Shown one piece after another: positions 2,663-53,792 of a DNA stretch of 64,000 nucleotides. Each line of letters begins with the position of its first letter. The stretch's first letter is position 1. Below the pieces are notes generated by a model that worked only from the letters and a program-made list of their open reading frames with translations, was not told where the DNA came from and searched no databases. The position numbers and the translations under genes were made by a program. This DNA comes from a virus. The DNA lies in the IMG/VR virus record IMGVR_UViG_3300009873_000022, positions 607-64,606 of that record. One strand, given 5' to 3'.

Positions 2663-3535
2663 CTACTTGTCGTCGCGAATACGTTTGAACCTGGGATGCC
2701 GTAATGATCCCTTCTCGGTGATCAGTTGGCACTGTACCTCAACCGTTCTACCTATGATGGTGTTCTTGCTGAACCTCTCCTTCCAAAATGTATCCCTCTG
2801 CTTGTCGGTCATGCCAGACACATTCACATTCCTCTTCTTGTACCTGACCACCAGTGCGCCGAGTGTTCCTTCGTACTTGCCACTGCCCTCCTTGAGGTCA
2901 GTTACTTGCACATCGACGCTGATCTCTTCCTTGATCTTCATCCAAGCGTGTGAACGAGTCGGAACCCAAGGCTTAGATAGATCCTTGATGATGCTACCTT
3001 CGTATCCACTACCGACATGCTCTCTGTTCAAACGGAGCGCATGATCGTGGTCCTCAACTTCACGCGGTTCGATCAGCTTGAAGTGCTTGTTTCGAGGAGC
3101 GCTCAGTGCCTTCAACTGTTCCTTTCGATGCCCTTGCTCTTTCTCGTCACCCTCCCCATAGAAGTAGTCAATGGGCATCACATGGAAGCAGTGGAATACT
3201 GCATCATCGGCTTGGTAGTTCTTGCGATGGATCGTGCCCGCTGAGTTGGCGAATGAACTACACACGATCTCACCGTCGAACATGGTTCCATTCTTGTACT
3301 CGTTGTACATATTGACCAATGCCATGTGAGCGGCCTCTACGTACAACTCAAGCTTCTTGAACATGAACCATTCACGACCGTTGCGGCTGTGAAACCTGAT
3401 ACCATGCTTTGGGTGATATAGAATGATACACCGAACTCCGTCAAGTTTCGGTTCGATGACCATGCTTTCCCAATCCTTGACGCGTTTCTGCTCGTACGTC
3501 TTGGCGAGCATCACTTCCTTTGGCCATGCGCTCAT
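2663..3535 (-). CDS. lig: ATP-dependent DNA ligase
   Basis: Nucleotidyltransferase motif I KxDG is present (EPKLDGVR). Motif IV is EGSIIK and motif V is WMKIK. The protein is 290 aa. Confidence 0.85.
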   Translation of the reverse strand: MSAWPKEVMLAKTYEQKRVKDWESMVIEPKLDGVRCIILYHPKHGIRFHSRNGREWFMFKKLELYVEAAHMALVNMYNEYKNGTMFDGEIVCSSFANSAGTIHRKNYQADDAVFHCFHVMPIDYFYGEGDEKEQGHRKEQLKALSAPRNKHFKLIEPREVEDHDHALRLNREHVGSGYEGSIIKDLSKPWVPTRSHAWMKIKEEISVDVQVTDLKEGSGKYEGTLGALVVRYKKRNVNVSGMTDKQRDTFWKERFSKNTIIGRTVEVQCQLITEKGSLRHPRFKRIRDDK

Positions 3536-14962: not shown

Positions 14963-15220
14963 GTGACAAAGGCTCGCATTGATTTCTTGGTGGATGGCGC
15001 ACAGCGACAGTTTCATGTGTTCCCTGGAACGACACTGACTGTTTGTTGCCTCACACTGCCAAATGGATTCTGTGTCACTGGCGAAAGCGCGGCAGCAAGT
15101 CCTGAGAATTTCGACCGTGAGATCGGTGAAAGGATTGCGCTTGAGAATGCCAAACATAAGGTCTGGGCACTCGAAGGCTACCTGCTGAAGCAGTCTCTGT
15201 ACTCGGCGTCGACGAACTGA
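14963..15220 (+). CDS. small hypothetical protein
   Basis: 85-aa ORF abutting terL. Confidence 0.35.
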   Translation: MTKARIDFLVDGAQRQFHVFPGTTLTVCCLTLPNGFCVTGESAAASPENFDREIGERIALENAKHKVWALEGYLLKQSLYSASTN

Positions 15221-16800
15221 TGACCGCAGCACGCAAGAAAGTCGAGGTCGGGCTATCGGTGCATGACCGCATCATAGCCGAGCCCATCGAATTCTTTGCG
15301 AAGGACATCCTTCAACTCAAGCGTTTGAAGGAAGATCTGCCGACAGTCAACTGGGGACTCTCCGATTTCCAAGTGGAGATCGTTGAGTCCCTTTTTGATG
15401 TGGCTCGCTTGAAACTTGGCATGCCCACCAAGTTCAATCACACTGGCAAGCCATGGATAACAGTGCGTTCTGGCCACGGTCCCGGTAAGACCTTCAGTGC
15501 TGCGCTCGTTGCACATTGCTTCAATGCAGCCTTCCCCGGCCGCATCATGGTGACTGCACCGAAGCTCAAGCAGGTAACGGACCGCATATTCCCTGAGTTC
15601 CGCAAGCTTCACATGCGAGCTCAACCTTGGTACAGGGAATTCGTAAAGGTAGAGGCGACACGCGTCACATGGGCAGGTGACCGCGACTGGTGCATGATCG
15701 CAGACTCTGCGACAGCCCCAGAAAACATAGCGGGCTCGCATCATATGTATCAGTTGGTGATTGTTGAAGAAGCGACTGGCGTGGACGAAAAGCTATTCCC
15801 CGTCATTGAGCAGGCACTCACCACCGGCAAGATCCAAGTGATGCTGATGATTGCCAATCCCACGAAACGACAGGGCACTTTTGCAGACTCTCACCTCAAA
15901 GAGAAGCTGCATAAGTATTACTATCGCATCCATGTCAACCCGGAAAACGTGCCGCGCGTGTCCCGTAGTTCCTTGGAGCGCCTCGCTGCCAAGTACGGCA
16001 AGGACTCCCCTGTATATAAGGTGCGCGGACAAGGCGAGTTCGCCACTGAGGACGAGCGTCAGTTGATCTCGCTTCAGTGGATCGTGGATGCGCGTAATAG
16101 GGATGAGATGAATGATGGCTCACTGCCCATGCTGCGTGTTTCCGTAGACGTCGCAGACGGCGGCGCGGCAGTGAGCTCAGTGGTTGTAGCTCGCCACTAC
16201 GCGACGCGCGTGACCATGCTCAAACGAAAGAGATATTCTTTCGAGTCAACTACGGGACTTGAGAAGCTGGCTAATGCAGCCGAGGCTATCTTTGTTGAGT
16301 ATGGAGGGAGGAAGGACAGCTCTGACGACTTTGTCGTTGACGCCAATGGCGTCGGCGCTGGCGTAGCTGGCGAGCTCATTAAGCGTGGATACAATGTAGT
16401 GACCTACAAGGGCGGCACGGAAAGCTCCAATCCCAAGCTCTGGAAGAACAAGCGTACTCAGTCATATCTGAATCTGCGCAATTTCTTCCGTGATGGCCTC
16501 GTGTCCTTTGATGAGGGATTCATCGATGAGCATGCCATCAATGAAGAGGGAATCTCGGAGTGGGATGACTACGAGGCTCAGTTGTGCGCTGTTCGTACGG
16601 TGGATAACAATGAGCGGCTTGAGGAAATAGAAACAAAGAAGGCTCTCGTCGTGCGCGTAGGCATGACACTAGATGACGCCGATGCGACTGCAATGCAGTT
16701 CACTGGCGCAGAGCCTTCTATCATACCGAACCCTGAGGGAACACCGAAGGAGTCTGACATGATGGTCGAATACAGCACGATTCTGGAGGGGCTGTTCTAA
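15220..16800 (+). CDS. terL: terminase large subunit
   Basis: Walker A is GHGPGKT and Walker B is LVIVEEATG. A C-terminal RNase-H-like nuclease region with acidic residues is present. The protein is 526 aa. Confidence 0.85.
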   Translation: MTAARKKVEVGLSVHDRIIAEPIEFFAKDILQLKRLKEDLPTVNWGLSDFQVEIVESLFDVARLKLGMPTKFNHTGKPWITVRSGHGPGKTFSAALVAHCFNAAFPGRIMVTAPKLKQVTDRIFPEFRKLHMRAQPWYREFVKVEATRVTWAGDRDWCMIADSATAPENIAGSHHMYQLVIVEEATGVDEKLFPVIEQALTTGKIQVMLMIANPTKRQGTFADSHLKEKLHKYYYRIHVNPENVPRVSRSSLERLAAKYGKDSPVYKVRGQGEFATEDERQLISLQWIVDARNRDEMNDGSLPMLRVSVDVADGGAAVSSVVVARHYATRVTMLKRKRYSFESTTGLEKLANAAEAIFVEYGGRKDSSDDFVVDANGVGAGVAGELIKRGYNVVTYKGGTESSNPKLWKNKRTQSYLNLRNFFRDGLVSFDEGFIDEHAINEEGISEWDDYEAQLCAVRTVDNNERLEEIETKKALVVRVGMTLDDADATAMQFTGAEPSIIPNPEGTPKESDMMVEYSTILEGLF

Positions 16801-19800
16801 TGGCTGGCACAGTTCCACCGATTGAAGAAGAACCGAAAGAACAACCTCTGGATCAGGTAACTACCTACGATCTGAGCAATCTCACATGGGGATTTGCTGG
16901 ATACAGGTACAATCCTGATGAGCTGGCATCCCGGCGTGGGCTCAAGATCTACCAGCAGATGCTCACTGATGAGCAGGTCAAGGCTGTCGTAGAGTTCAAG
17001 CTCGCTGCTATCTTGTCACGAGGATATCAATTCGTGTTCGACGGCTCGAAGCTCTCGCCCGAAAAGCAGGAGGAGCGCTCGTGTCTATTCCAGCACATAC
17101 TGCTCAAGATGCGCGGATCCTTCATGGATGCCCTCGAAGGAATTGCCTCTGGCAGAGAATATGGGTTCAGTATCACGGAAAAAGTGTACGGTGAAGTGAC
17201 GTACGACGGGTCTCCATATGTCGGCATCAATCAACTGCTGACCAGAGACCCGAGTTCATTCCTGTTCAAGACTGATGCCTATGGAAACCTCGTCGAGGTC
17301 AAGCAGCAAGTGACGGGGCAGCAGGAAGTGATCATTGACCAGAGTCGAATGATACACTATGTCCATGCGCCCAAGTGGGACGCAATCTACGGCAGAAGTG
17401 ACCTCCGCGCTGCTCATCGCTCGTGGTATGCGAAGGATAACCTCGTAAAGCTGGAACTAATGTATCTCGAGAAGTTCGGCGGTGGAACTGCTGTAGCCAA
17501 GCGCATGACAGATGATGCTCCACGTTCTGGCACTCCTGATCATGTTCAGTTAGAGTTCGCGATCAAGAACATCTCGTCACTGCGCTCCATCGTTCTTCCC
17601 AAGGGAGTTGAGCTAGAGATTCTGTACCCGAACGTGACCACTCAGTTCCGTGAGGCAATCACGTACCACGACCTCGCCATTGCGAAGGCTTTGCTGGTTC
17701 CTAATTTGCTGGGATTGTCACATACAGGGCAAACAGGCGCGTTCGCTCAGTCGCAGACTCAACTACAGGCTTTCTTTTGGACACTGAACACCGACGCCAA
17801 TCGCCTCGAAGAGTGCCTCAATGAGCAGCTGTTCAGAGACCTCGGTGATCAGAACTGGGGTGACGGAGACTATCCACGCTTCAAGTTCAAGAAGGCTGAT
17901 ATCGAGCATACCAAGTGGATCGTCGCTACATGGAAGGAGATGCTCAATATCAAGGCTGTTCTTCCCACTGAAGATGATGAGAAGTTCCTTCGTGAGCTCT
18001 TGGAGATGCCGGAACGCGATGAAAACAGTGTCATCCTTGAAAACCCTGTTGAGCTGCGCAAGGAAGAGGAAGCCAAGAAGGCTCAAGCTGATGCACTCGC
18101 TGCGCAGCAAGCTCAACAGCAAGGGCAGCAGGATGCAGTGAAGAAGGAGCTCGCCGATCAAAAGGCAGCGAGCGATGCGGCGCAGCAGGATGTCAAGAAG
18201 TTGCAGAGTGACCTAGCTGCACTGAAGGTCGAGTCTACTAAGGTTCAACCGATCACAGTTGATATAGTCAGGGCAGAAATGGAGGCCGCGCTTAGGAAGT
18301 TTGGTTACAATCCCGATCAACCACGTGATGGTCACGGTAGGTTCGGCGAGGGTGGAGGCAGTGATTCAGGTAAGGACCACGAAACTGAGTTGTATGAAAA
18401 GACCGGGGTAAGACTTCGCATCTCTACTGTAAAGACGGACAAGGACCGGGTAGAGGCTGTTTCAAAGGCTACGATGGAGGTCGTTTCATCATTAGCAGAA
18501 AATCCCGCCATTGGTACGGTTCTTCGTAGAGACGGAGTGACCATAGAGATAGTCGATGGAAAGACTATCATGAATGAAGCACATGGTACTCAATCATTTG
18601 CCTCGTACAATGAAGCCACTGGAACTATCAAAGTTGCTGCTGGATTGAATTTATCCGGCACCGCAGCGACTCCAAGTATTGGAAAGTTTAATGTGGGTAC
18701 AGATTTCCGTACAGTATTGGCCCACGAGATAGGACACGCAGTGAGCCGTCGTATAGCTGTAGACGCACTCAAAGCTGATCCAAATGCCCTCGTTGGCGCT
18801 GCACTGTATAAGTCACTTGGGTCATCCCGAATTGAAAAGGGAGTCAGTGGATACGCAGCAAAGAATGCTAGAGAATTCATGGCGGAAGCATTCGCCGCGT
18901 ACACACACCCTGGATACTCATCTTCAAAAGGTTTGCCAAAAGAAGTAGAGCATGTATTTGAACTCGCTGGAGTTGGCGCTGGGACACGTAAGTTTGACAC
19001 AGAAGTAGTCCCGCACGGCAAGCTCTATGGAGTCCCGCTCACTACGTTTCAGCGCGCTACGATGCGAGTCAACTTCCAGACCATCGAGCAGAAGACGAAT
19101 ACCTTCGCTGACTCTGCCGTGCGCAACCTCGCTGCCATAGTGGCGAAGGCCGCACGCAGAGCGCTTGGAGACGATGAAAACATGAAGAGTCTGTTGGACG
19201 ATGACCCCTCGGATGTCGCGGCAATAGACGTAGGGCAGGCAGACAAGAGCAAGTTGCGAGCGACATACCGTGATCTACTGAACCAGTCGTGGAAGCTTGG
19301 AGCCAATCTCGCGAACAACGAACTGGCCCGTGCACGAGGCAGTGAGTTCGTCAATGCCACGGCCAAGTTCGCAAGTCTGTTGGACAAGGCATCGCAGTAC
19401 TTTGATACCCAAGCGTTCCGCATGGCAGGCGACACCTCTGATCAGGTGCGCAAGACCATTCAGCAGGAACTTCAGAATGGCATCAAACAGGGCAAGCCAC
19501 TCACGGATGTTCGCGTCAACATATGGAACAGGCTCGTTACCAAGGGCATGACATCGCAGTCTGCCGTCAAAGATGTAGAGGATGACGATGCGGTGAATGA
19601 GGCACTAGACCTGCTCTGGGCAGATAGCGAAGCCGGAGCAGTGGCTTACTTGAATACTCTTGTTCGCACCAATACTTTCGAGGCGCTCAATGAAGCGAGG
19701 TATGCGCAGTTCACTGATCCTGAGCTTGGTGACTTTGTGGTTGCCTTACGCTATGCCGCAGTCCTCGATAGCTCAACGACCAACATCTGTGAAGAGATGG

Positions 19801-19961
19801 ATGGAAAAGAGTTCACCACGGACAACCCCATCTGGGATGAGTACCGACCACCGAATCATTTCAACTGCCGCAGCATCCTTGTGCCAATCACGGCGGTGGA
19901 TGGTTGGGATGGCAAAGAGTCACCGGAACCGAGCCTCTCGCCGCAGGAGGGATTCAAATGA
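16800..19961 (+). CDS. portal protein (Mu gp29/DUF935-like) fused to an HExxH metallopeptidase-like insert and a C-terminal MuF/SPP1 gp7 head-morphogenesis domain
   Basis: The protein is 1053 aa. A central A/Q-rich coiled coil is present. The HExxH motif is VLAHEIGHAV, followed by EFMAEAF. The C-terminal MuF motif is NICEEMDGKEF...PPNHFNCRSILVPI. Confidence 0.75.
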   Translation: MAGTVPPIEEEPKEQPLDQVTTYDLSNLTWGFAGYRYNPDELASRRGLKIYQQMLTDEQVKAVVEFKLAAILSRGYQFVFDGSKLSPEKQEERSCLFQHILLKMRGSFMDALEGIASGREYGFSITEKVYGEVTYDGSPYVGINQLLTRDPSSFLFKTDAYGNLVEVKQQVTGQQEVIIDQSRMIHYVHAPKWDAIYGRSDLRAAHRSWYAKDNLVKLELMYLEKFGGGTAVAKRMTDDAPRSGTPDHVQLEFAIKNISSLRSIVLPKGVELEILYPNVTTQFREAITYHDLAIAKALLVPNLLGLSHTGQTGAFAQSQTQLQAFFWTLNTDANRLEECLNEQLFRDLGDQNWGDGDYPRFKFKKADIEHTKWIVATWKEMLNIKAVLPTEDDEKFLRELLEMPERDENSVILENPVELRKEEEAKKAQADALAAQQAQQQGQQDAVKKELADQKAASDAAQQDVKKLQSDLAALKVESTKVQPITVDIVRAEMEAALRKFGYNPDQPRDGHGRFGEGGGSDSGKDHETELYEKTGVRLRISTVKTDKDRVEAVSKATMEVVSSLAENPAIGTVLRRDGVTIEIVDGKTIMNEAHGTQSFASYNEATGTIKVAAGLNLSGTAATPSIGKFNVGTDFRTVLAHEIGHAVSRRIAVDALKADPNALVGAALYKSLGSSRIEKGVSGYAAKNAREFMAEAFAAYTHPGYSSSKGLPKEVEHVFELAGVGAGTRKFDTEVVPHGKLYGVPLTTFQRATMRVNFQTIEQKTNTFADSAVRNLAAIVAKAARRALGDDENMKSLLDDDPSDVAAIDVGQADKSKLRATYRDLLNQSWKLGANLANNELARARGSEFVNATAKFASLLDKASQYFDTQAFRMAGDTSDQVRKTIQQELQNGIKQGKPLTDVRVNIWNRLVTKGMTSQSAVKDVEDDDAVNEALDLLWADSEAGAVAYLNTLVRTNTFEALNEARYAQFTDPELGDFVVALRYAAVLDSSTTNICEEMDGKEFTTDNPIWDEYRPPNHFNCRSILVPITAVDGWDGKESPEPSLSPQEGFK

Positions 19962-20353
19962 ATCGTAGGCAAGTACTGAAGTGGGCAGTTGCCGGCATCG
20001 TAGTCGCCGCGTCTGTTCCATATGTAGTGTATGGAAATGATCCGTACCTTGAGCTCGTTGATGCCAAGGGAAAGGTCGTTGCGCGAGTGTATGCGCGTGA
20101 CCCATCAGTGTATGCGGACCTGAGTGATGCACTCCATGGAACTGAATCAACGCACCTTGAGTTCATTTTCGAGTACGAAAACACGAATGGCAATCCTGTC
20201 AATCTGCGAAAGGCGGTATGGCGCAATTTGCCACATGATCTGGCCAAAGCACTGAAGCCGGAGCACGAGCTTGACACGCGTGGCCTCGTACTGTACCTCT
20301 ATGACAGGCTTCATCTGACGATACCTGTTGACGTAAGGAGCACGATTGTATGA
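19958..20353 (+). CDS. hypothetical protein with an N-terminal hydrophobic segment
   Basis: ATGA overlaps the portal stop. The N-terminus is MNRRQVLKWAVAGIVVAASVPYVV. Confidence 0.45.
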   Translation: MNRRQVLKWAVAGIVVAASVPYVVYGNDPYLELVDAKGKVVARVYARDPSVYADLSDALHGTESTHLEFIFEYENTNGNPVNLRKAVWRNLPHDLAKALKPEHELDTRGLVLYLYDRLHLTIPVDVRSTIV

Positions 20354-20679
20354 GCAGGACACTGGTAAGCGGAGCTCCCGTGCCTGAAGACGGCAGTCAC
20401 CGCGAGCTCAAGGAAAATGGGCAACAGAAAGACTATGTCGTGTTGTCTGCCGAGGAACGTGCGAAAGGATTTGTCAAGCCACTCCGCATGTCTTACAAAC
20501 ATGCATGTGGAACAGTGACCACAATGAACATTGCCATTGCAGAGACATACGCGCGCGACCCTCATTTCTACAGCGGTACGTTCTGCGCTCGATGCAAACG
20601 GCATCTTCCCTTGAAAGAATTCACATGGGTTCCGGACGGAGAATCTATGGATCCCGCACTACAGACGGTGAAGTCATGA
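20350..20679 (+). CDS. hypothetical protein
   Basis: 109-aa ORF, overlap-coupled. Confidence 0.4.
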   Translation: MSRTLVSGAPVPEDGSHRELKENGQQKDYVVLSAEERAKGFVKPLRMSYKHACGTVTTMNIAIAETYARDPHFYSGTFCARCKRHLPLKEFTWVPDGESMDPALQTVKS

Positions 20680-20960
20680 GTCAACCATTCATTGCACGCG
20701 TTCAGCAGCTGATACAGCAGCGCACAGATATGGAGATCGTGCAGACTGCCATTGATGTGATACAGAAGAACGCACTCAAGTCTACGGCAGCTACACTCAC
20801 ACTCGATGAAGTGGCATGGCTGGCGGCATTCATTGGCAAGGCAAGTTCTGGGGCGCGAGATGCAATGATGAAACGTGACGTGGCGGTTGATGAGAATGGA
20901 ACACGTGTAATCAACATCACGGCTGATGATAGCGTGAAAGCAGCAGATGGAGCAGGCTAA
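20676..20960 (+). CDS. hypothetical protein
   Basis: ATG at 20676 overlaps the upstream stop. The track ORF 20505 start lies inside the previous gene. Confidence 0.4.
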   Translation: MSQPFIARVQQLIQQRTDMEIVQTAIDVIQKNALKSTAATLTLDEVAWLAAFIGKASSGARDAMMKRDVAVDENGTRVINITADDSVKAADGAG

Positions 20961-22015
20961 TGGCCAAACAAATCAAAGGCGCTGAGATATTCAGTATCGG
21001 AACATGGAATGGACTCACCTTCACCGGTGAAGATATCGACAGCATGGTTTCGAGCTTCGATGCTCTTAGTCTAGCTGGCCGCATTCCACTCAAGCTGTCA
21101 CATGACGGCCCTGATGAACGCTTTGACCCGTTGACCAAGCTGTCAATGGGATGGGTGCAAAGAGTTTGGCGCGAAGGAACGCGCCTCATGGCGGACATGG
21201 AAGTTCCAGACGGAGTCGCAAAACTTATCAAGGAAGGATTCTTGAAGTTCGTTTCTGTTGAGCTACTCAAGGATGTTCAGGCGAGCACGCGGATTATCCC
21301 GTGGGTCCTGGATGCAGTAGCTCTGCTGGGGTCCGAGCAACCTGCCCTCGGTGTCCTCAGGGACCTTACATCGATCGACATGTCTCGAAGAACTGCATTC
21401 CAGTTCCGTGAGCGTGCGACGTTCAGGCGGGAAGTGTCATTTGATGGAGATCGTAAGCATATGGCAGACGATATTGACAAGACAGGGCAGGAGCGCATCA
21501 AGGAGCTGGAGAAGCAGCTCGATGAGGCTCGTGTCAAGGCCGCTGAGCGTGACGTGTTCGAACGGAAGGCCAAGGATCTGGAAGAGAAGAGCAAAAACGA
21601 AAAGGTTTCTGCTCATCGCGCCAAGATCAAGGAGAAGTTCGATACGGCCGTCACGGAGAAGCGTATTCAGCCGAAGATCCGTGAGCGGTTCTACTCGCGG
21701 TTCGAAATCGACAGTGACGATGTACTCAAGATCGGGCTCGATACGGTCGATGAGTACATTGCGGAGAACCCGAATCCGCTGGCACCGCGCGTGAATACGT
21801 TCGGTTCCAACGGTGACACGGTTGCCGTCGGTGCTACGGCAGATGCCGAGGCACTGAACAAGGCGCGCGAGCTGGTCCGGGCCAATGGTGGCAACGTCAA
21901 TGATCCGGAAGCGCTCATTCGTGCCGGTATCCAGCTCTTCCAGAGGGACCGAAACCTCGCGGAACGCTACCGCAACCTCCCGGCGGACTTTGCCGCTGGC
22001 TCACTGGATCGATAG
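20960..22015 (+). CDS. putative prohead protease/scaffold (Mu gpI-like), with a coiled-coil C-terminal half
   Basis: The call rests on position between portal/MuF and capsid. The scaffold-like repeat is KELEKQLDEARVKAAERDVFERKAKDLEEK. Confidence 0.5.
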   Translation: MAKQIKGAEIFSIGTWNGLTFTGEDIDSMVSSFDALSLAGRIPLKLSHDGPDERFDPLTKLSMGWVQRVWREGTRLMADMEVPDGVAKLIKEGFLKFVSVELLKDVQASTRIIPWVLDAVALLGSEQPALGVLRDLTSIDMSRRTAFQFRERATFRREVSFDGDRKHMADDIDKTGQERIKELEKQLDEARVKAAERDVFERKAKDLEEKSKNEKVSAHRAKIKEKFDTAVTEKRIQPKIRERFYSRFEIDSDDVLKIGLDTVDEYIAENPNPLAPRVNTFGSNGDTVAVGATADAEALNKARELVRANGGNVNDPEALIRAGIQLFQRDRNLAERYRNLPADFAAGSLDR

Positions 22016-23812: not shown

Positions 23813-26800
23813 ATGGAAATCGTCATTCACAGTCTTGGCATGCCCTTCAATGGGGAAACGATCGCGAAGCGCTCGCTCGGTGGATCTGAGTCTGCGGCAT
23901 ACTATCAGGCGGTAGAGTTGGCAAAGCGAGGGCATCGTGTCACCGTATTCAGCACAATTTCTCTGCAGGAACAGGGAGAATGGGACGGTGTTCGGTATTG
24001 CAGTGCCGGAGAAGTGACACAAGAGGCTCCGCTGGGGTCTTTGTTCACGTTCTATGCGCAGCATACTCCGCATGACGTGCTCATCATTCAGCGTCACCCA
24101 ATGGCTTTCCATTGGCGCTGGAACAGTAAGATCAACATCCTTCAATTGCATGATCTCGCATTATTCCGTAGTGCGGGAATGGTAAATCATGGAATGTGGC
24201 AGGTTGACTACGTCACGTGCGTGAGCGAATGGCACAAGAAACAGGTATCTGAGGTTTACGGACTTGATCCAGACTTCGTGTCTGTGGTTCCTAATGGTGT
24301 AGACCCAGCACTGTACGTGGCCGAAGCAGATTGGAGTGGTAAGGAAAATCTGTGGGAAAACATTCAACGTGCCGCAGAGTCTGGTGAAACATTCAATATG
24401 TTGTACCAGTCACGCCCCGAACGTGGATTGGAACACCTATTGCGTCCAGGTGGCATCATGGATCGTCTGAAGGATACCAAAGCGACTCTATGGTATTGCG
24501 GGTATGATAATACCGTACCGCAGATGGTTAACTTCTATGATCAATTGAACTCGTGGGGTGAGGCACTACCGAATGTAGTGAACATTGGAGCACTGACCAA
24601 GGCGCAACTGGCTTCCGTACAGAAAGTCAGTGACTTGCTTATCTACCCAACAGAATTCGAAGAAGTTTCGTGCATCACGGCGATGGAGGCCATGCATGCC
24701 GGACTTCCACTGCTGACCAGTGAGTGTGCGGCCCTTCCGGAAACTTGCAAAGATAGCGGAACGTTTCTGATCCCACTCAAGGATGGACAGGCAGATGAGG
24801 ACGGATTTGTCAGTGCTGTGCGCGGATTTCTGAGTGGCGCAGGGCCAAAAGACAGCAAGGAAAAGCAACTTGAAGCGGCCAAGACGCGCACGTGGGTGAA
24901 TGCAGTTGATGTGTTGGAATCAGCTATCGAGGCAGCATTCAATCGTCGTCGAGGATCGGCGGCGCGTGATCTACGTCACATGATTGACCACAGTGACGCG
25001 ATGCTGGCGCAGGACCGAGAAATGGTGTATGCACCGTCCGAACCAAATGCCATCGCAGATGCGGCAAGAAATGAACTTGTAACCAAGTATGCATTCGCAA
25101 ATTCAACGGAAGCATACAAGGAACACTATGACAAACATCAGTCTAGGTACTACGATGATCACGAGGACAAGGTCATTGGTGAGGATGTTACTGGTAGCAC
25201 TCGTTTCAGGGGCGTCGCTGGGCTGATTGCCAATGAAGCAGCTAAGAAGCCGTCATTCAGGATGCTAGATTACGGATGTGCACATGGTCACTACCTGATT
25301 CCCATCGCCAAGGCTTATCCAGGATCTCGATTCACTGGTATTGATATCAGTGAACGGGCAATAGCAGCAGCTACGAAGTGGATGGTCCGTGACAATGTTT
25401 CTAATGTCCAGCTCTATCAGGGTAATCAGGATCTACTACGGGACCTTAACCGCCTGTGTCCATTCAAGTTACCCGCTCTTGGTGAGGATGCGTGGAATGT
25501 TGATCCGACCACTGGCAATGCTGTTCGAAATGTATTGAACAGGGAATCTCAGCGTGATCTGTTCGATATCATTCTTGCGGGAGAAGTCCTAGAGCATGTC
25601 GCTGACCCGTTCATGCTGCTCAGTGCGCTTCGTGATCTGTTGAAGCCTGATGGTCTCTTGATCATCACTACTCCTACAGGAAAGTGGGAATGGACAGGGC
25701 GTAGCGAGTTCCGTAAGGCTAGAGAGCATCTGTGGCATTTCGAAAAACAGGATATCCGAGACATCTGTGGCAAGAATGATGTTCAGATTCTTTGTGCCCC
25801 GGCTTCTCACGATATAACCGGTGAGGCCCTCGGATCGTGGGTCTGGGGAGTTCGACCGGTCTATCCGTTTGGTGGCATTGACATGAGGCGCAAGTTTGAA
25901 CAGCTCGCCCCTCGTGAAACAGTTTCGGCATGTTTGATTGTCAAGGACGGTGAGTCGACACTTCGCAAGTGTCTGCTATCGTTCATTGATTATGTCGATG
26001 AAATCATTGTGGCCATTGACCCAGATACGAAGGACAATACCAATGGCGTTCTACAAGAAATCATCAAAGAGTACCCGCTAGTGCCCATCAAGTCATTGTC
26101 GGGAGTGGTAGCAATGCGTGAAGGATTCGCGGCAGCACGGAATCTTACTCTCGATCACGCATGTGGCGATTGGGTATTGTGGGTAGACGCAGACGAAGAA
26201 ATCTCACAGCCTTGGGAAATGTGGAAGTATCTGCGTCCTAGCCAGCATCGCGCGTTTGGATTCAAGCAAATTCACTATTCTGCTCGCCCTGCGCAGGTAC
26301 TGACGGAAGACTTGCCGTGCCGACTCATTCGCCGTCGTGATTCTATTCGCTTTCATGGGTTTGTCCATGAACATCCAGAGGAAAAGCAGGGTGAGGCAAT
26401 CAAGTATTCCACCATTCGCGACGACATGCAGTTCTTGCACGGTGGATACGTGGACGAGGCCACTCGCCGCGCACGGTTCCGAAGAAACTTACCTCTCCTC
26501 ATGCGCGACATCAAAGAGAATCCTGACCGCAAGATCAACAAGTTCTTGTATCTTCGTGACATAGCACAGAGTCTCGCGTTTGAACACGAGCAAACAGGTG
26601 GTGTCGTTCTTGAGACACAACCTGAGCGAGCAAAAAAGGGCACCGAAATCTGGGAGAAGATGCTAGAGGATGAGAACAGTCCCACCAGAATGCTGATTGA
26701 TTCGCTTCAGTATTACTCTTTGTGTGTAGAGGTGCTAAGTGGTGGAGGAGGCATCGAAGCTGAGATATCACTTGGTTGTGCTGTTCAGGGAATCCCAAGT

Positions 26801-26914
26801 CTGGCTGCTCGCGTACAGGCAAAGGGAAGGTTCCTTACGCGAGATCATTTTTTCCGTCTGAGTAATCGTATTCAACAGGAGGCTACTAAGCACTATGAGT
26901 CAAGGTATCTTTAA
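23813..26914 (+). CDS. trifunctional glycosyltransferase (GT4/GT-B) - class I SAM methyltransferase - glycosyltransferase (GT2/GT-A) polyprotein
   Basis: The GT4 N-terminus is GGSESAAYY...GHRVTVFS. The GT4 C-terminus is EEVSCITAMEAMHAGLPLL. The methyltransferase motif I is MLDYGCAHG and the post-I motif is LLKPDGLLIIT. The GT2 domain has SACLIVKDGESTL...WVDADEEI with a DxD. Confidence 0.8.
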   Translation: MEIVIHSLGMPFNGETIAKRSLGGSESAAYYQAVELAKRGHRVTVFSTISLQEQGEWDGVRYCSAGEVTQEAPLGSLFTFYAQHTPHDVLIIQRHPMAFHWRWNSKINILQLHDLALFRSAGMVNHGMWQVDYVTCVSEWHKKQVSEVYGLDPDFVSVVPNGVDPALYVAEADWSGKENLWENIQRAAESGETFNMLYQSRPERGLEHLLRPGGIMDRLKDTKATLWYCGYDNTVPQMVNFYDQLNSWGEALPNVVNIGALTKAQLASVQKVSDLLIYPTEFEEVSCITAMEAMHAGLPLLTSECAALPETCKDSGTFLIPLKDGQADEDGFVSAVRGFLSGAGPKDSKEKQLEAAKTRTWVNAVDVLESAIEAAFNRRRGSAARDLRHMIDHSDAMLAQDREMVYAPSEPNAIADAARNELVTKYAFANSTEAYKEHYDKHQSRYYDDHEDKVIGEDVTGSTRFRGVAGLIANEAAKKPSFRMLDYGCAHGHYLIPIAKAYPGSRFTGIDISERAIAAATKWMVRDNVSNVQLYQGNQDLLRDLNRLCPFKLPALGEDAWNVDPTTGNAVRNVLNRESQRDLFDIILAGEVLEHVADPFMLLSALRDLLKPDGLLIITTPTGKWEWTGRSEFRKAREHLWHFEKQDIRDICGKNDVQILCAPASHDITGEALGSWVWGVRPVYPFGGIDMRRKFEQLAPRETVSACLIVKDGESTLRKCLLSFIDYVDEIIVAIDPDTKDNTNGVLQEIIKEYPLVPIKSLSGVVAMREGFAAARNLTLDHACGDWVLWVDADEEISQPWEMWKYLRPSQHRAFGFKQIHYSARPAQVLTEDLPCRLIRRRDSIRFHGFVHEHPEEKQGEAIKYSTIRDDMQFLHGGYVDEATRRARFRRNLPLLMRDIKENPDRKINKFLYLRDIAQSLAFEHEQTGGVVLETQPERAKKGTEIWEKMLEDENSPTRMLIDSLQYYSLCVEVLSGGGGIEAEISLGCAVQGIPSLAARVQAKGRFLTRDHFFRLSNRIQQEATKHYESRYL

Positions 26915-30578: not shown

Positions 30579-31489
30579 CCAAGCTTCGCGTCATTCGTCG
30601 CGGTTCAAGTAACGTGTATATCCCTCCAACGGGAGGAACGGTTACGCGGCTGTTCACCGACGATTGCAGCGGCACGGACCCTGCAACGCTGTGGACTATT
30701 TCCGACGATCTTGGTAGCGGGTTGGATGCTCCGGGCGGCGAGTACGTACCCTACGCCGGGCAGGACTGGCATCTGATCGATCTGCACTACACGCAGATGG
30801 GCGTGAGCTTCCGCAACGAAGTGACGACGAAGTCGCAGGGGGCATGGAATGGTAGGACTGCATTTGACACAGAGTATTGGTACCGTCTCAGCATTAGACT
30901 ACCTGGTCCAAGTGACCCGAATGGATACCCGGAGTGGATTACCAGCTATCCAGATGCGTATTACGAAATTTTGACGCAGTGGCACGACAGTGCCCCGCGT
31001 ACTGCGGGATATAGTGCCAACCCGATTGCCACGCTATCTGTCGATTCACCAGCCGGTGCTTCTGCGCGGTGGAAGTTTCTAGCTCGCGGATATGGTGGTG
31101 GTGCTGGTGGACCAAGTGGGTTCAGCACGACTGGCAGCGTTGATCTTGGAGCATGGGCCGACGACCTCGGCACGGAAGTGGTCTTTGTATTCCGTTTTCG
31201 CTATGCATGGGCCACACAGACTGGGTTCGTCGAGGTGTGGAAGAATGGTGTCAAGATGGTATCCCAGTTTGATATGTATCTCGCTTACTATCAAGCTGAT
31301 GGATGGGCTCCGTATTGGAAAGCTGGCATTTACCATGGATGGGCAAACAGCCAGTCCGGTGCTCCGACTCCTCTTGGTCCTACGCGTCGTACGCATTTGA
31401 AGCGAGACTATCGTATGTGCACGGTAGCGGGTAATCCTGCTGTCCCCGTTGGAACTGACAATACCGGCTATCTGGATATGACAACATGA
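30575..31489 (+). CDS. putative polysaccharide lyase (PL7/alginate-lyase-like jelly-roll) depolymerase
   Basis: QWH is present as ILTQWHD, and YWKAGIYHG resembles the PL7 Q(I/V)H and YFKAGxY motifs. The start MTKLRV overlaps the upstream stop with ATGA. Confidence 0.45.
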   Translation: MTKLRVIRRGSSNVYIPPTGGTVTRLFTDDCSGTDPATLWTISDDLGSGLDAPGGEYVPYAGQDWHLIDLHYTQMGVSFRNEVTTKSQGAWNGRTAFDTEYWYRLSIRLPGPSDPNGYPEWITSYPDAYYEILTQWHDSAPRTAGYSANPIATLSVDSPAGASARWKFLARGYGGGAGGPSGFSTTGSVDLGAWADDLGTEVVFVFRFRYAWATQTGFVEVWKNGVKMVSQFDMYLAYYQADGWAPYWKAGIYHGWANSQSGAPTPLGPTRRTHLKRDYRMCTVAGNPAVPVGTDNTGYLDMTT

Positions 31490-33828
31490 CTAGCTATGTT
31501 GGAGCAGGCTTTGGCGTCACTACGGCTGTGCTACCAGCACACCAAGTGGATGACTTGATGCTCGCGTTCGCATACCGAGATGGCAGCAACACGCCACCTG
31601 GATTGTCTCCGGATGGATGGACTTCTGTAGTTAATTCAGGGGCTAACACTAATTCAATTAGACTAGGCTGGCTCAGGGCTAGCACGACTGGACATATAAG
31701 TGGAGTGTGGTCAAACGCTACGACACTGATTGTCAATGTGTATCGCCCGAATTCTGGATATCTACTCCGAGTAGGTAACTTCATAGTCAATGGTGGCGCG
31801 TCTAGTGCTGCCGTGTATCCGACGTTATCATTGCTAGATGTGAACAGCAAGTCATGGGTCGTGGCTTTCGCAGGGCATAGAAGTACAAATACTAATTTGC
31901 AGAATGCTCCAACAAGCATGACCATGCGGGCTAGTTCGGTAGATGCCACTGACGAGGGAGCTAGCTTTGACACTAATGGTGCAATGACCGCATGGAATGT
32001 GAGCAGCGTTGCGCTTGGTGGCACCGCATCAGGTTGGCGAGCCGTTGTACAAGAGATAGTAGAGTACCCTGTGAAGGTAGCTCAGGTGGAGAGCACCATC
32101 GTTCCAACCGAGCCCGGATTCACCGTCATTAATGTTGATGTAGTCAGGACGACTAATGTCCCCAGTGTGGAAGATGCGATAGCAAAGATTGGAAGATGGA
32201 TTCACAATGTAGACAGCACAATAGTTGTAACTGAAGCGTCAGTAGAGAGCACTACTGATACGACTGCTACTACAGTAGATGCCATTTCTACGGATGATAA
32301 CTATGTGAAGCTGCTTTCTAAGCTTCTAGCGGACGCTACTGTCATAATAGATGAGGTTTCGTCATCGTACATACCGGGTGGTGGCGGTGGGCCTACGGTT
32401 TCTGTACTTACAGATTTAGTCAGTATCGTAGATGAAGCATTGAGCATAGCTAGATATCTGCGCATAACTCAGGACTTGTTGACCCTAGACACTCCTGTCT
32501 TAGAAACAGACACTAGTCTGGTTGCTGTAGCTACTGATATTAGTGATGTCACTGATACTGTAACTAAGTGGCAAATTAGGCTTCTGCAGAGCGCTGCCGT
32601 TCTAGTCGATGCACTGTCTTCAGTTCTTACTGGCAGTGGTACCGTCCAGACTAAAGTTCTGGAAAGTGCGCTGGATGTGATAGATGTCTTAGTGAAGTCA
32701 CTTAGGGCATTGCGAGAGGAATCTATATCTGCAGTTTCAGAGGGACCACTCGAAAGGGTGTTTGACTACACTCAAGAGAGCAGTGTGGTATTAGACACTC
32801 CATCACTAGAGAGCTTCAGTTTCTTGGAGGCTAGGGCCTCGTCATCACCTGAAGTCAATGATGGCACAGTCAGCTTTGTGAGGTATGCGCGTGTTGCAGA
32901 GAGTTTATCTGTACTGATTGATTCGTTATCATCTTCTTTGCAACAGTCTGGAACTGTCAATACATCTGTTCTGTCATCTACTGTGACAGTAATAGACCAA
33001 CTTCTTAGAAGTTTGATGGATGTTCGAGAGGTAACTTCGGAGTTGGTGCTATCTGATTCGTCAGTCATGTGGTCTACGCTGAATAGGTTAGCTGAGTCAC
33101 TGGTAGTCTTGATCGATGAGGTAGTAAGTAGCACTATAGTTAGTGGAGGACTGTACGTCAAGACTCTTGAAGATATGATAACAGTGGTGTCTCAGATAAA
33201 CAAGATTCTAATCCTGCTGAGAGACGACAGTTCGCCTGTGACAGATAGCCCATTGATAAAGGCTCTGAGCATAGTCTCACAGAGTACAGTCGATGCAGTA
33301 TCTGAGGCAGTGACACGGCTAAGGTTCACACGCCTGTTGACCGATGAGTTAACTGCGTTCGATGATCTGGTTTACTACACACTAGGAATTCAGGTAAGAA
33401 CTCTTACCAGTGCCATCACGGTGTATGATGAGTTGGTGCAGGCTCTTTCGGCAGCTCGGCTATCTAGTGATGGCCTTCTGATAGTAGACTCTTTGTCTGG
33501 TCCACTACTTCGTGGTCGCATAATGGCTGACGACGTAATCGCATTCGATGCAGTGGTCACGACAGTGCTGCGTCAGTATGCATTCACGTCTGAGAGTCAG
33601 GTGACGCTGGACGACTCTGTTGTATCAATTCTTCGTGTTCGTAGAATACTTGATTCCATAGCTCTAACGGTAGATGACATCGTTTCAAATGTGTACCAGT
33701 TCTTTCTCACATATGGTGTCACCGTACCGAAGATATCGTTGTCTGTAGATACCATCAAGCTGCGCATGTTGCCAGCTGCAATACTAGGAATGCGCAGTGA
33801 CACCATTCGACTCAGTGTAGGAGCCTAG
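31486..33828 (+). CDS. fibre protein with internal repeats of about 45 aa
   Basis: 780-aa ORF. Three or more copies of a repeat like L(V/I)DxLSSxL..SGTV.T.VL.S...VID.L..SL lie between aa 360 and 565. Confidence 0.55.
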   Translation: MTSYVGAGFGVTTAVLPAHQVDDLMLAFAYRDGSNTPPGLSPDGWTSVVNSGANTNSIRLGWLRASTTGHISGVWSNATTLIVNVYRPNSGYLLRVGNFIVNGGASSAAVYPTLSLLDVNSKSWVVAFAGHRSTNTNLQNAPTSMTMRASSVDATDEGASFDTNGAMTAWNVSSVALGGTASGWRAVVQEIVEYPVKVAQVESTIVPTEPGFTVINVDVVRTTNVPSVEDAIAKIGRWIHNVDSTIVVTEASVESTTDTTATTVDAISTDDNYVKLLSKLLADATVIIDEVSSSYIPGGGGGPTVSVLTDLVSIVDEALSIARYLRITQDLLTLDTPVLETDTSLVAVATDISDVTDTVTKWQIRLLQSAAVLVDALSSVLTGSGTVQTKVLESALDVIDVLVKSLRALREESISAVSEGPLERVFDYTQESSVVLDTPSLESFSFLEARASSSPEVNDGTVSFVRYARVAESLSVLIDSLSSSLQQSGTVNTSVLSSTVTVIDQLLRSLMDVREVTSELVLSDSSVMWSTLNRLAESLVVLIDEVVSSTIVSGGLYVKTLEDMITVVSQINKILILLRDDSSPVTDSPLIKALSIVSQSTVDAVSEAVTRLRFTRLLTDELTAFDDLVYYTLGIQVRTLTSAITVYDELVQALSAARLSSDGLLIVDSLSGPLLRGRIMADDVIAFDAVVTTVLRQYAFTSESQVTLDDSVVSILRVRRILDSIALTVDDIVSNVYQFFLTYGVTVPKISLSVDTIKLRMLPAAILGMRSDTIRLSVGA

Positions 33829-53673: not shown

Positions 53674-53792
53674 CTATGGGCTCCCAGCGATATCGCCTTA
53701 CAATGAACACACTGGTAGACACCACCCTTGAGATGATTGAACTTGAACTCCCATTTGCAGTTAAGGAATAGACACCTGATTGAGTACCTCAT
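53670..53792 (-). CDS. possible 40-aa Zn-ribbon microprotein, translationally coupled (ATGA overlap)
   Basis: The sequence MRYSIRCLFLNCKWEFKFNHLKGGVYQCVHCKAISLGAHR has CxxxxC...CxxC. The longer track ORF 53670..53918 overlaps the upstream gene. Confidence 0.25.
   Translation of the reverse strand: MRYSIRCLFLNCKWEFKFNHLKGGVYQCVHCKAISLGAHR

Follow-up and report, generated by a model that had tools for sequence, protein, structure and literature searches.

The portal-zincin-MuF gene and its locus

The stretch of DNA that we analyzed (the window, 64,000 nt of viral sequence) carried a single open reading frame encoding a 116-kDa chain of 1053 aa, in which a portal, a helical linker, a junction motif, a zincin cargo domain and a MuF domain were joined. 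The gene directly followed that of the large terminase (TerL), its ATG overlapping the TerL stop codon, and GGAGG lay 7 nt upstream of the ATG. Its features, all on the + strand, were as follows:

15220 to 16800, + strand: large terminase (phrog_2 TerL, E 1.3e-22; syntenic in relatives)
16800 to 19961, + strand: the portal-zincin-MuF gene
16944 to 17957, + strand (aa 49-386; fold spanning about aa 15-410): Mu-type portal domain, from Pfam, PHROG and AF2/Foldseek
18045 to 18206, + strand (aa 416-469): long helix rich in Q, A, E and K, with which the variable linker after the portal begins
18300 to 18359, + strand (aa 501-520): junction motif FGYNPDQPRDGHGRFGEGGG, at the N-terminal edge of the insert
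18312 to 19004, + strand (aa ~505-735): cassette inserted relative to the ~820-aa family, from alignments A1 and A5, linker lengths and third-position GC (GC3)
18369 to 18965, + strand (aa ~524-722): lethal-factor/PPEP-like (M34-type) zincin domain
18723 to 18737, + strand (aa 642-646): HEIGH (H642, E643, H646), two predicted zinc ligands and the general base
18852 to 18893, + strand: YAAKNAREFMAEAF (Y685, E692, E696), with the predicted catalytic Tyr and the Glu predicted as third zinc ligand
19005 to 19454, + strand (aa 736-885): N-terminal helices of the MuF part, conserved throughout the family
19455 to 19877, + strand (aa 886-1026): MuF/SPP1 gp7 domain, from Pfam and TIGRFAM
19848 to 19874, + strand (aa 1017-1025): PPNHFNCRS within the MuF domain
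20960 to 22015, + strand: prohead protease/scaffold gene (phrog_976 head maturation protease, E 7e-21, aa 2-233)

The 9162 bp spanning the gene matched a separately assembled Logan contig with 0 mismatches, and the same uninterrupted portal and MuF frame was found in >100 relatives from independent metagenomes. A frameshift or misassembly was therefore ruled out, and the 1053-aa frame described in the initial annotation is real, identical in two independent assemblies and flanked by the genes for large terminase and prohead protease. We found no convincing internal translation start that would yield a separate MuF or zincin-MuF protein; the sole candidate, TTG at aa 531 preceded by AAGGA at a distance of 10 nt, was weak.

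Relatives shared the syntenic order TerL, portal-MuF, small ORF(s), protease, decoration protein and major capsid protein, and the protease gene was kept at the same position in those without a zincin. Two extra small ORFs (19958-20353 and 20350-20679) lay 3' of the portal-zincin-MuF gene and were missing in all three relative loci read (L006, L011 and L012). Their GC3 of 0.52-0.54 was intermediate and uninformative on co-acquisition with the insert, a possibility that was set aside. The phage also encoded DNA polymerase A, ligase, thymidylate synthase, glucosyltransferase and DNA-modification genes, and an integrase was not found among the ~25 ORFs covered by a non-exhaustive scan. The gene probably belongs to a lytic tailed phage.

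Both structural ends of the chain were readily assigned. Pfam Portal_Mu (PF06074 / DUF935) matched aa 49-386 with 141.4 bits against a gathering score of 23.9 (E 5.7e-41), and the phrog_113 portal profile matched at E 1.7e-58. The full-length AF2 model had pLDDT >90 over aa ~50-400, and Foldseek matched the portals of G20c, P23-45, JBD30 and Mu (E 1e-10 to 3e-14), so that the profile match and the modeled fold together bear out the Mu gp29-like portal region proposed initially. When the full-length model was searched against the PDB, only portals were among the 50 matches listed, and no solved MuF structure. At the other end, Phage_Mu_F (PF04233) matched aa 886-1026 at 59.6 bits (gathering score 29.6, E 6e-16) and TIGR01641 phageSPP1_gp7 at 54.2 bits (cut-off 39.65, E 1.6e-14). 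The C-terminal MuF motif PPNHFNCRSILVPI was present, C997, H1020 and C1023 were invariant in 115 family sequences, and the chain ended 27 aa past the domain, which thus had the canonical form that had been claimed for it. The helical region ahead of it was modeled at pLDDT of about 90-98.

Following the portal, aa 416-469 formed one continuous helix in the AF2 model, within a region that differed in sequence and length between relatives. Its earlier description as a Q/A-rich coiled coil holds as far as the long helix goes; that these helices would form a coiled coil or barrel in a dodecamer is something we infer rather than see in the model.

An accessory cassette and its junction motif

A search for portal-MuF chains returned 424 matches, of which the best 120 all carried both PF06074 and PF04233 and were mostly 790-880 aa long. 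Judging from these sequences, the portal-MuF fusion is the norm in a large metagenomic phage family with proteins of about 820 aa; our literature searches on such fusions yielded nothing specific beyond Iyer et al. From R406 to H739 the linker measured 332 aa, compared with a median of 93 aa (5-95%: 78-108) for 114 relatives, placing an insert of ~230 aa between portal and MuF, after which family alignments A1 and A5 picked up again at VVPHGKL. Among the 114 relatives only one had a comparable linker insertion, an ADP-ribosyltransferase in a protein from Logan SRR17234072 (P0113), and none had a zincin. These alignments and linker statistics reject the notion that the HExxH segment is part of the standard MuF N-terminal region, from which it had been set apart at the outset. 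The initial annotation had also called the portal-peptidase-MuF chain unusual. This stands for where the cargo sits, between portal and MuF, which is the only rare feature, and not for the fusion of portal and MuF, and the chain is best described as an unusual arrangement of parts known to travel together rather than a new kind of system.

Base composition set the insert apart from the rest of the gene. Its GC3 of 0.39, against 0.60-0.68 in the flanks, was the second-lowest of 157 200-codon windows in the phage. Because of this atypical composition, the sequence suggests that the zincin cassette was acquired horizontally and recently. P0113 had a similar GC3 trough in its ADP-ribosyltransferase insert, as did the zincin of P0130, a collinear zincin-MuF homologue (42% identity) whose ORF was open to the contig end.

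The junction motif at the N-terminal edge of the insert was single-copy within the window, and its core in the cassette read ..YNPDQPRDGHGRFGEGGG... It followed the pattern K-[YF]-x-P-[DNS]-Q-P-R-D-x-x-G-[RK]-[FW]-..GG, of which a longer variant was ..Q-P-R-V-P-A-G-S-P-x-G-G-Q-[FW]-.SGGG. The motif also preceded the ADP-ribosyltransferase insert of P0113 and was N-terminal, or nearly so, in the free-standing zincin homologues P0122-P0125 (P0121 kept the Gly-rich part only). In many phage polyvalent proteins it stood ahead of cargo modules, recurring between modules in up to 7 copies, and P0179, with 7 copies, had no zincin. A broad pattern search of the portal-MuF relatives recovered it in P0113 only, plus one weak match in P0110. 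Were the motif a signal delimiting exchangeable cassettes, its analogues would be pre-toxin motifs such as VENN in CdiA and the capsid-targeting sequence of T4 internal proteins. String searches of the literature found no description of the junction motif, which does not by itself prove novelty. In the AF2 model the motif was disordered (pLDDT <50) and not docked in the active site, and self-docking and self-cleavage therefore find no support in the model.

The zincin domain, its homologues and known systems

The zincin occupied about 200 aa (about 524-722), twice the segment of about 100 aa initially delimited, since the domain includes an N-terminal alpha/beta half in addition to its catalytic helices in the AF2 model. 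Both catalytic elements reported from the first reading, HEIGH and a downstream Glu in EFMAEAF (aa 692-698), were present. HEIGH lay on a predicted helix (aa 636-659), its H, E and H were invariant in 63 diverse homologues, and it aligned with HETAH of the Pro-Pro endopeptidase (PPEP). The second element, on and just ahead of a predicted helix at aa 690-702, aligned with Y..PEEFFAESF of the same enzyme, and Y685, E692 and E696 were likewise invariant in the 63 homologues. E692, which opens EFMAEAF, is the most likely third zinc ligand, and Y685 precedes it by seven residues; this Tyr-to-Glu spacing of 7 equals that in PPEP-3 (Tyr190/Glu197) and PPEP-1 (Tyr178/Glu185) (PMC12828418). The full predicted catalytic set (H642, E643, H646, Y685, E692) is thus present.

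Pfam offered one resemblance, to ATLF (PF07737), which scored 18.6 bits over aa 624-703, below its gathering score of 27.4 (E 0.0017), and no Pfam polyvalent-protein family matched at E <= 0.1. ATLF, lethal factor and the PPEPs are assigned to MEROPS family M34. Nineteen of the 63 profile-detected zincin homologues matched ATLF at E <= 0.001, the best at E 3.8e-15, and the predicted structure had a fold similar to that of solved lethal-factor-like members. Searching PDB chain sequences with aa 501-867 as a single sequence gave no match even at E 10, and a six-sequence zincin profile gave a weak PPEP match at E 0.82; it is on fold and residue conservation, not on this match, that we base the lethal-factor-like assignment. 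The only NCBIfam metalloprotease match was weak (NF038122, 19.9 bits against a cut-off of 80) and was disregarded. By fold and conserved residues, the insert is a lethal-factor/PPEP-like gluzincin with predicted peptidase activity. Identity to anthrax lethal factor and PPEP-1/2/3 was about 14-16%, with the ATLF score under the gathering threshold, and the contexts differ: lethal factor is a secreted toxin and the PPEPs are secreted proteases, whereas the context of the present zincin would be the interior of a phage capsid.

A word-indexed homologue search with the insert found 6 proteins, whereas an exhaustive profile search revealed a wider family; a scan of IMG/VR with the zincin alignment gave 2 loci. 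Phage_Mu_F was present in 46 of the 63 zincin homologues, further ones carried ADP-ribosyltransferase, InPase, Acb1 or Zeta toxin domains, and others occurred in proteins with ART-PolyVal and GNAT domains. Structural matches of the zincin in BFVD were annotated as head-morphogenesis, polyvalent or 'lethal factor' phage proteins. Chains combining zincin and MuF, portal and zincin, or portal, MuF and zincin were all found elsewhere, and the zincin family is a regular companion of MuF in phage polyvalent and cargo proteins. The free-standing homologue P0122 had HVIGH and had lost the catalytic Glu, making a non-catalytic role possible for some family members.

Polyvalent proteins of phages combine 2-15 domains, zincin metallopeptidases being the commonest, and cargo domains fused to MuF and portal have been reported among them, MuF being thought to bring effectors into the host (PMC5512222; Iyer, Burroughs, Anand, de Souza, Aravind 2017, J Bacteriol). 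The present protein shares with them a zincin of the HExxH and downstream Glu type joined to virion-targeting domains (MuF and portal), and a gene placed within the portal-terminase packaging module. Unlike them, it has one enzymatic module, placed between portal and MuF instead of after MuF; with portal, zincin and MuF in one polypeptide, encoded between TerL and the prohead protease, it is a minimal example of a polyvalent protein. Jamet et al. (2017, BMC Biol; PMC5576092) reported that 20% of putative MuF toxins have a metallopeptidase domain. In those polymorphic toxins, as here, MuF is combined with a variable enzymatic domain and the toxin gene adjoins the portal gene, but MuF is N-terminal, the toxin is C-terminal, an immunity gene follows and the phages are temperate (PMC5576092), whereas the present cargo precedes MuF in the chain and is joined to the portal. 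We identified no immunity gene for the portal-zincin-MuF gene.

Mu gp29 (portal) and gp30 (MuF), and SPP1 gp6 and gp7, belong to the same two families and likewise follow the terminase, portal first. In cultured Bacillus, Staphylococcus and Geobacillus phages, portal and MuF are adjacent separate genes (about 28-32% identical to the protein described here), and it is in the ~820-aa metagenomic family, including the present protein, that the two form one polypeptide. Within that family, P0113 (1018 aa; portal, ADP-ribosyltransferase, MuF) is 43% identical overall (alignment A1) and 54% in the best local alignment. Its linker insertion site, similar junction motif, Gly-rich stretch before the cargo, GC3 trough and syntenic locus are all alike; its cargo differs, being ADPrib_exo_Tox (PF03496) with no zincin. 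Two proteins outside the family carry portal and zincin in one chain: an ORF of 1310 aa in IMGVR_UViG_3300036766_000658 has portal, MuF and the same ATLF-like zincin in the canonical order portal-MuF-cargo and also bears an intein, and P0272 (687 aa) is a portal with a C-terminal zincin. Both differ in having a portal of the Phage_portal_3 family and the zincin at the C-terminus.

Possible roles of the zincin

On balance we favor, with moderate confidence, the reading that the zincin is a virion-packaged, probably ejected accessory cargo module within the portal-MuF fusion. Since a portal points its C-terminus into the capsid, assembly of the prohead would place the zincin and MuF at the portal vertex, with as many as 12 copies of each. 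The linker would probably be cut during maturation, the likely agent being the prohead protease, as for the C-terminal tail of Mu gp29, whose last 124 residues are missing in the virion structure, which its authors ascribed to protease I (PMC11915804); the zincin itself may contribute to the cut. Alone or still joined to MuF, it would become a capsid-internal passenger that exits together with the DNA and, at an early stage of infection, acts as a protease on a host target or on proteins packaged alongside it. An ejected effector freed by self-cleavage, one of the two roles initially suggested, is plausible as a prediction, though release should need no zincin, since relatives and the ADP-ribosyltransferase variant lack one. 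The presence of PF03496 in P0113, at the same place and behind a similar motif, suggests that the linker serves as a cargo site. A covalent tether to a 12-mer ring would be an odd way to deliver an effector, and without cleavage the zincin would stay in the emptied capsid. The 12 MuF copies per prohead implied by the fusion would also depart from the studied MuF model, as SPP1 gp7, which binds the portal, is present in only 1-2 copies per capsid (PMC5576092).

The two inserts show that the flexible portal-MuF linker can take up foreign enzyme cassettes, a zincin here and an ADP-ribosyltransferase in a sister phage, and insertion there would set the cargo at a defined, stoichiometric place within the capsid. 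The protein is a tractable natural example for studying how phages load and release injected effectors, and whether polyvalent-protein zincins act on the chains they belong to or on proteins of the host. Cargo-cassette boundaries can be sought by the junction motif and by troughs in base composition, sequence marks that would aid annotation and could guide the engineering of protein-delivering phages. Current concepts are unchanged, and the picture of polyvalent proteins and MuF cargo drawn in 2017 is extended.

A credible though unlikely alternative is that the zincin has no host target and cuts only its own polyprotein, for instance in or close to the junction motif (aa ~501-520), where the zincin meets MuF, or at both places, freeing MuF from the portal. 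Autoproteolysis has been proposed as a main role of polyvalent-protein metallopeptidases (Iyer et al., PMC5512222), and the zincin lies exactly between two structural modules, directly behind a conserved motif that recurs between modules of polyvalent proteins. Yet >100 relatives have the same portal-MuF fusion with neither zincin nor motif, the chain of P0113 combines the motif with an ADP-ribosyltransferase and lacks a zincin, and P0179 has seven motifs and no zincin, so a zincin within the chain itself cannot be required for the fusion to be processed; nor was the motif predicted to dock in the active site. Cleavage of the peptides KFGYNPDQPRDGHGRFGEGGG and KYSPDQPRVPAGSPEGGQFTSGGG by the zincin, if seen, would favor processing at the junction motif. 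More doubtful is a broader proposal in which the portal vertex acts as a covalent loading dock for 12 copies of the protease, released at a junction motif that would be a general processing or packaging signal for exchangeable cassettes.

We consider it quite unlikely that the zincin is an aid to ejection that leaves before or with the DNA and cuts an envelope component such as a protein or the stem peptides of peptidoglycan, helping the genome to enter. A comparable proposal exists for the metallopeptidase domain of gp47, a packaged polyvalent protein of phi24B (bioRxiv 10.64898/2026.04.10.717836), and SPP1 gp7, a MuF protein, is needed for efficient infection according to the title of a reference cited in PMC5576092. 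However, the closest structural relatives, lethal factor and the PPEPs, are sequence-specific protein endopeptidases and not peptidoglycan peptidases, and the present data point to no target.

It is less credible again that the insert is a catalytically irrelevant passenger or structural spacer, recent and neutral or merely structural. Its atypical GC3, pointing to recent acquisition, its presence in this member only when compared with 114 relatives, and the loss of the catalytic Glu in one homologue would fit such a view, but the frame is unbroken over 690 nt and the five catalytic residues are intact, canonically spaced and invariant across 63 diverse homologues.

The other role initially suggested, a maturation protease that replaces or assists the prohead protease on capsid, scaffold or portal proteins, is very improbable: although the zincin would sit inside the prohead at the portal and some MuF-containing PHROG families are labelled 'head maturation protease' (phrog_595), it is an accessory insertion of atypical base composition whose homologues co-occur with toxin and effector domains, and the phage has a dedicated prohead protease/scaffold gene that is retained in syntenic zincin-less relatives, which assemble the same module.

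Layout of the fusion gene and its relatives

The portal-MuF fusion gene (window 16800..19961, +) was listed among the predicted ORFs as an open frame of 1053 aa without interruption, with an ATG that follows a GGAGG and overlaps the stop of the large-terminase gene upstream. A separately assembled Logan contig was identical over 9162 bp spanning the gene (0 mismatches); its features are therefore real and a frameshift artefact between portal and MuF was excluded, bearing out the initial annotation of one ORF joining a portal, an HExxH segment and MuF. Portal and MuF/SPP1 gp7 assignments were the same from PHROGs and TIGR01641. Features of the protein (gene on the + strand) were as follows:

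aa 49-386: Portal_Mu (PF06074; Pfam, E 5.7e-41)
aa 501-520 (window 18300-18359): junction motif FGYNPDQPRDGHGRFGEGGG, which opens the insert
aa 624-703: ATLF, anthrax lethal factor domain (Pfam, 18.6 bits, sub-threshold against a gathering score of 27.4)
aa 642-646: HEIGH, read from the protein sequence
aa 692-698: EFMAEAF, read from the protein sequence
aa 886-1026: Phage_Mu_F (PF04233; Pfam, E 6e-16, above the gathering score)

Just past the junction motif, an in-frame TTG at window 18390 (aa 531) has AAGGA 10 nt upstream, a weak and unconvincing candidate for the internal start of a free zincin-MuF protein.

Comparison of the whole fusion protein with a collection of 5.8 billion proteins returned 424 relatives, the best 120 of which (from JGI, ENA, Logan and NCBI contigs) all carried both PF06074 and PF04233 and were mostly 790-880 aa long. 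In Bacillus phages Eoghan and Glittering, Staphylococcus phage MVC_VPHSA1 and Geobacillus phage GBK1, portal and MuF are separate adjacent genes, and cultured-phage homologues shared ~28-32% identity with the fusion protein. As the relatives are fused whereas the cultured homologues are separate genes, sequence comparison indicates that portal-MuF fusion is the family norm and the mark of an uncultured phage group, rather than peculiar to this protein. Thus, of the earlier view that a portal/metallopeptidase/MuF chain is unusual, the part concerning the fusion itself fell away, as it is the norm in the best 120 of 424 relatives, and the part concerning cargo between portal and MuF stood.

Loci of relatives were syntenic with the window: TerL and portal-MuF are followed by one or two small ORFs, then by genes for a ~350-aa protease/scaffold, a ~124-aa decoration protein and the major capsid protein, and last by one for a glycosyltransferase-methyltransferase protein of ~1000 aa. 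Shortly downstream of the major capsid protein gene in the window, a 1033-aa protein (23813-26914, +) with GT4 glycosyltransferase, SAM methyltransferase and GT2 glycosyltransferase domains, its position kept in related phages (L011 from 9275, L012 from 8807), may be an enzyme of virion glycosylation or modification. Directly 3' of the fusion gene come two small ORFs (window 19958-20353 and 20350-20679, +), one of 131 aa with a hydrophobic TAT-like N-terminal segment and the other of 109 aa with a C...C..C pattern. The three relatives whose loci were read (L006, L011 and L012) lack both and have just one or two small ORFs (72-95 aa) ahead of the protease; a role as zincin inhibitor or immunity proteins is pure speculation.

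Several family members carried intein or Hint domains (P0080, P0002, P0068, P0091, P0105 and L008 168-4100, aa ~800-1070), including a weak Intein_splicing match directly past the MuF domain in L008. In P0080, an insertion of ~290 aa (aa ~790 onward) splits the invariant MuF motif PPNHFN|CRS. Inteins tend to occupy critical sites, so an intein-type insertion here hints that the H/C-containing PPNHFNCRS motif is functionally critical.

A cargo cassette in the portal-MuF linker

The fusion protein was collinear with its ~820-aa relatives to about aa 505, and the alignment restarted at VVPHGKL (aa ~736). From the invariant R406 to the nearly invariant H739 the linker comprised 332 residues, against a median of 93 (5th-95th percentile 78-108) in 114 relatives. 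Only one of these had a linker of comparable length (295 residues): P0113, a 1018-aa sister protein with an ADP-ribosyltransferase (PF03496, Pfam) at the same site as the zincin insert. Other long relatives were long for other reasons, namely Hint or intein domains in four of them (precomputed Pfam list) and, in P0080, the insertion inside the MuF motif. GC3 of the insert (window 18312-19004) was 0.39 compared to 0.60-0.68 in the flanking parts of the gene; among 157 windows, each 200 codons long, from all genes of the phage (mean 0.56, SD 0.08), only one was lower. Similar troughs were found in the P0113 ADP-ribosyltransferase insert (L006 2778-5834, aa ~480-660; 0.55 versus about 0.85) and in the zincin of P0130 (L010 37-2577, aa 74-245; 0.63 versus 0.86). 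Since cargo GC3 was markedly below that of the structural core in three independent genes, the troughs fit horizontally exchanged cassettes and suggest that cargo moves between phages of differing base composition. Within the phage, GC3 was lowest in a 780-aa ORF of the tail region (window 31486-33828, +; 0.43 overall, windows down to 0.375), which has no Pfam match and may likewise have been acquired recently or be mosaic.

A motif similar to that opening the insert preceded the ADP-ribosyltransferase of P0113 (aa ~476-503), and four free-standing zincins (P0122-P0125) had it at their N-terminus or close to it; in a fifth, P0121, the Gly-rich part alone was recognisable. Long polyvalent proteins had it repeatedly between their modules, seven times in P0179 (domains ART-PolyVal, GNAT and ADPrib_exo_Tox) and seven times in P0253, and it was present in P0188, P0219, P0173 and P0265. 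Two forms were distinguished, a short one (34 instances; K-[YF]-x-P-[DNS]-Q-P-R-D-x-x-G-[RK]-[WF]-..GG) and a long one (38 instances; ..Q-P-R-[VE]-P-A-G-S-[PS]-x-G-G-[QE]-[FW]-.SGGG). A broad pattern search of 119 portal-MuF relatives recovered the motif in P0113 only, plus one weak match in P0110, and the window held a single copy; the cassette therefore came in as motif plus domain. Because the motif was found in the zincin-less chains P0113 and P0179, it does not depend on a zincin within its own chain; it might serve in processing, as a signal for packaging or as a hinge. A limited literature search found no published description of it. P0130 has another repeated junction on either side of its modules, FHTPGG.DHDQ..H...G(S/G) (aa ~25-45 and ~560-585).

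The zincin domain and its catalytic residues

With the insert as sole query, five free-standing proteins of 270-300 aa were recovered (38-46% identity). Contigs of two were read: one gene lay directly 3' of a TerL gene, the other a few kb downstream of a portal gene. An exhaustive HMM search with the homologue alignment yielded 826 cluster representatives at E <= 1e-3 and 191 at E <= 1e-10, in proteins of about 100 to about 2250 aa with the domain N-terminal, central or C-terminal in one to three copies. Among 63 homologues scanned with Pfam, 46 carried Phage_Mu_F and 19 matched ATLF (best E 3.8e-15); further partners were InPase, ADPrib_exo_Tox, Acb1, Zeta toxin, topoisomerase IB and portal domains. 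Structural neighbours of the insert in BFVD were phage proteins labelled head-morphogenesis, 'lethal factor' or large polyvalent.

The H/E/H of HExxH and the Tyr and two Glu of S-x-Y-A-x-x-N-x-x-E-x-x-A-E-x-F (H642, E643, H646, Y685, E692 and E696 in the fusion protein) were invariant in all 63, in support of the proposal that HEIGH and the downstream Glu in EFMAEAF form a zincin-like site. A weak profile-to-PDB alignment (E 0.82) paired HEIGH with HETAH, and Y..N.RE.MAEAF with Y..YPEEFFAESF, of Pro-Pro endopeptidase. Catalytic residues of PPEP-3 are His153, Glu154, His157, Tyr190 (oxyanion) and Glu197 (third zinc ligand), and those of PPEP-1 include Tyr178 and Glu185 (PMC12828418); their Tyr-to-Glu spacing of seven is matched by Y685 and E692. 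Given the invariant catalytic set and this spacing, which also rule out a chance HExxH, the insert is predicted to be a sequence-competent lethal-factor-like gluzincin. Its own domain family and its insertion in the linker rule out the HExxH as part of the MuF N-terminal region. One free-standing homologue (P0122, 270 aa) had HVIGH in place of HEIGH with the remaining domain conserved and, having lost the catalytic Glu, may be a pseudo-enzyme.

Proposed role of the zincin and phage lifestyle

Zincin-like metallopeptidases are the commonest domain of polyvalent proteins, and cargo domains (PBECR, 2H) have been reported in fusion with MuF and portal domains (Iyer et al. 2017, PMC5512222); a metallopeptidase domain occurs in 20% of putative MuF toxins (Jamet et al. 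2017, PMC5576092). Related arrangements in public data were a portal-MuF-intein-zincin chain (L008, 1310 aa), a portal-zincin chain (P0272) and, as in the fusion protein, a zincin N-terminal to MuF (P0130, P0161 and P0228). P0130 was collinear with aa 502-1052 of the fusion protein (42% identity) and, because its reading frame continues to the edge of the contig, may be fused to something upstream. What is new is that the cargo stands between portal and MuF; the same linker accepts an ADP-ribosyltransferase in a sister phage. We regard the protein as a neat example for specialists rather than a surprise; what most merits follow-up is the junction motif, along with the notion that the portal acts as a loading dock.

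The portal C-terminus (crown) points into the capsid interior. We postulate that a helix (aa 416-469), the zincin and MuF would jut into the prohead from each of 12 portal subunits, and that, as the head matures, the linker would be cut, the probable agent being the prohead protease (gene at 20960-22015). Either alone or still attached to MuF, the zincin would then be a free passenger inside the capsid, exiting with the DNA to work as a protease early in infection. The virion structure of Mu lacks the last 124 residues of gp29, a loss that its authors credit to protease I cleavage (PMC11915804). SPP1 gp7 binds the portal (PMC5576092), and MuF domains are thought to bring effectors into the host (PMC5512222).

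Alternatively, the zincin might purely process its own chain, but this would not account for the handling of the same fusion in more than 100 zincin-less relatives or in the ADP-ribosyltransferase-bearing P0113. An envelope-breaching enzyme, a role suggested for the packaged metallopeptidase-bearing phi24B gp47 (bioRxiv 10.64898/2026.04.10.717836), seems rather improbable here. The maturation protease proposed in the initial annotation is unlikely, as the phage has a dedicated, conserved protease gene and the zincin has been inserted as an accessory. An inert passenger, for which the HVIGH of P0122 would be a precedent, is likewise unlikely given intact, invariant catalytic residues. We favour the packaged protease; the zincin is an accessory module with an intact catalytic set and belongs to a MuF-associated family of cargo domains.

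The phage encodes a DNA polymerase A and an ATP-dependent ligase (window 61305-63197 and 2663-3535, -), a thymidylate synthase-like protein and a glucosyltransferase; no integrase was seen among the ORFs scanned, and the phage looks lytic. This speaks for an effector that promotes infection rather than an inter-bacterial toxin like the MuF toxins of temperate phages. The thymidylate-synthase-like gene adjoins genes for a radical-SAM protein and the glucosyltransferase, a homologue of beta-glucosyl-HMC alpha-glucosyltransferase (window 50631-51665, 51638-52648 and 53789-54664, -). Together with the polymerase and ligase genes, these suggest a lytic phage with hypermodified DNA.
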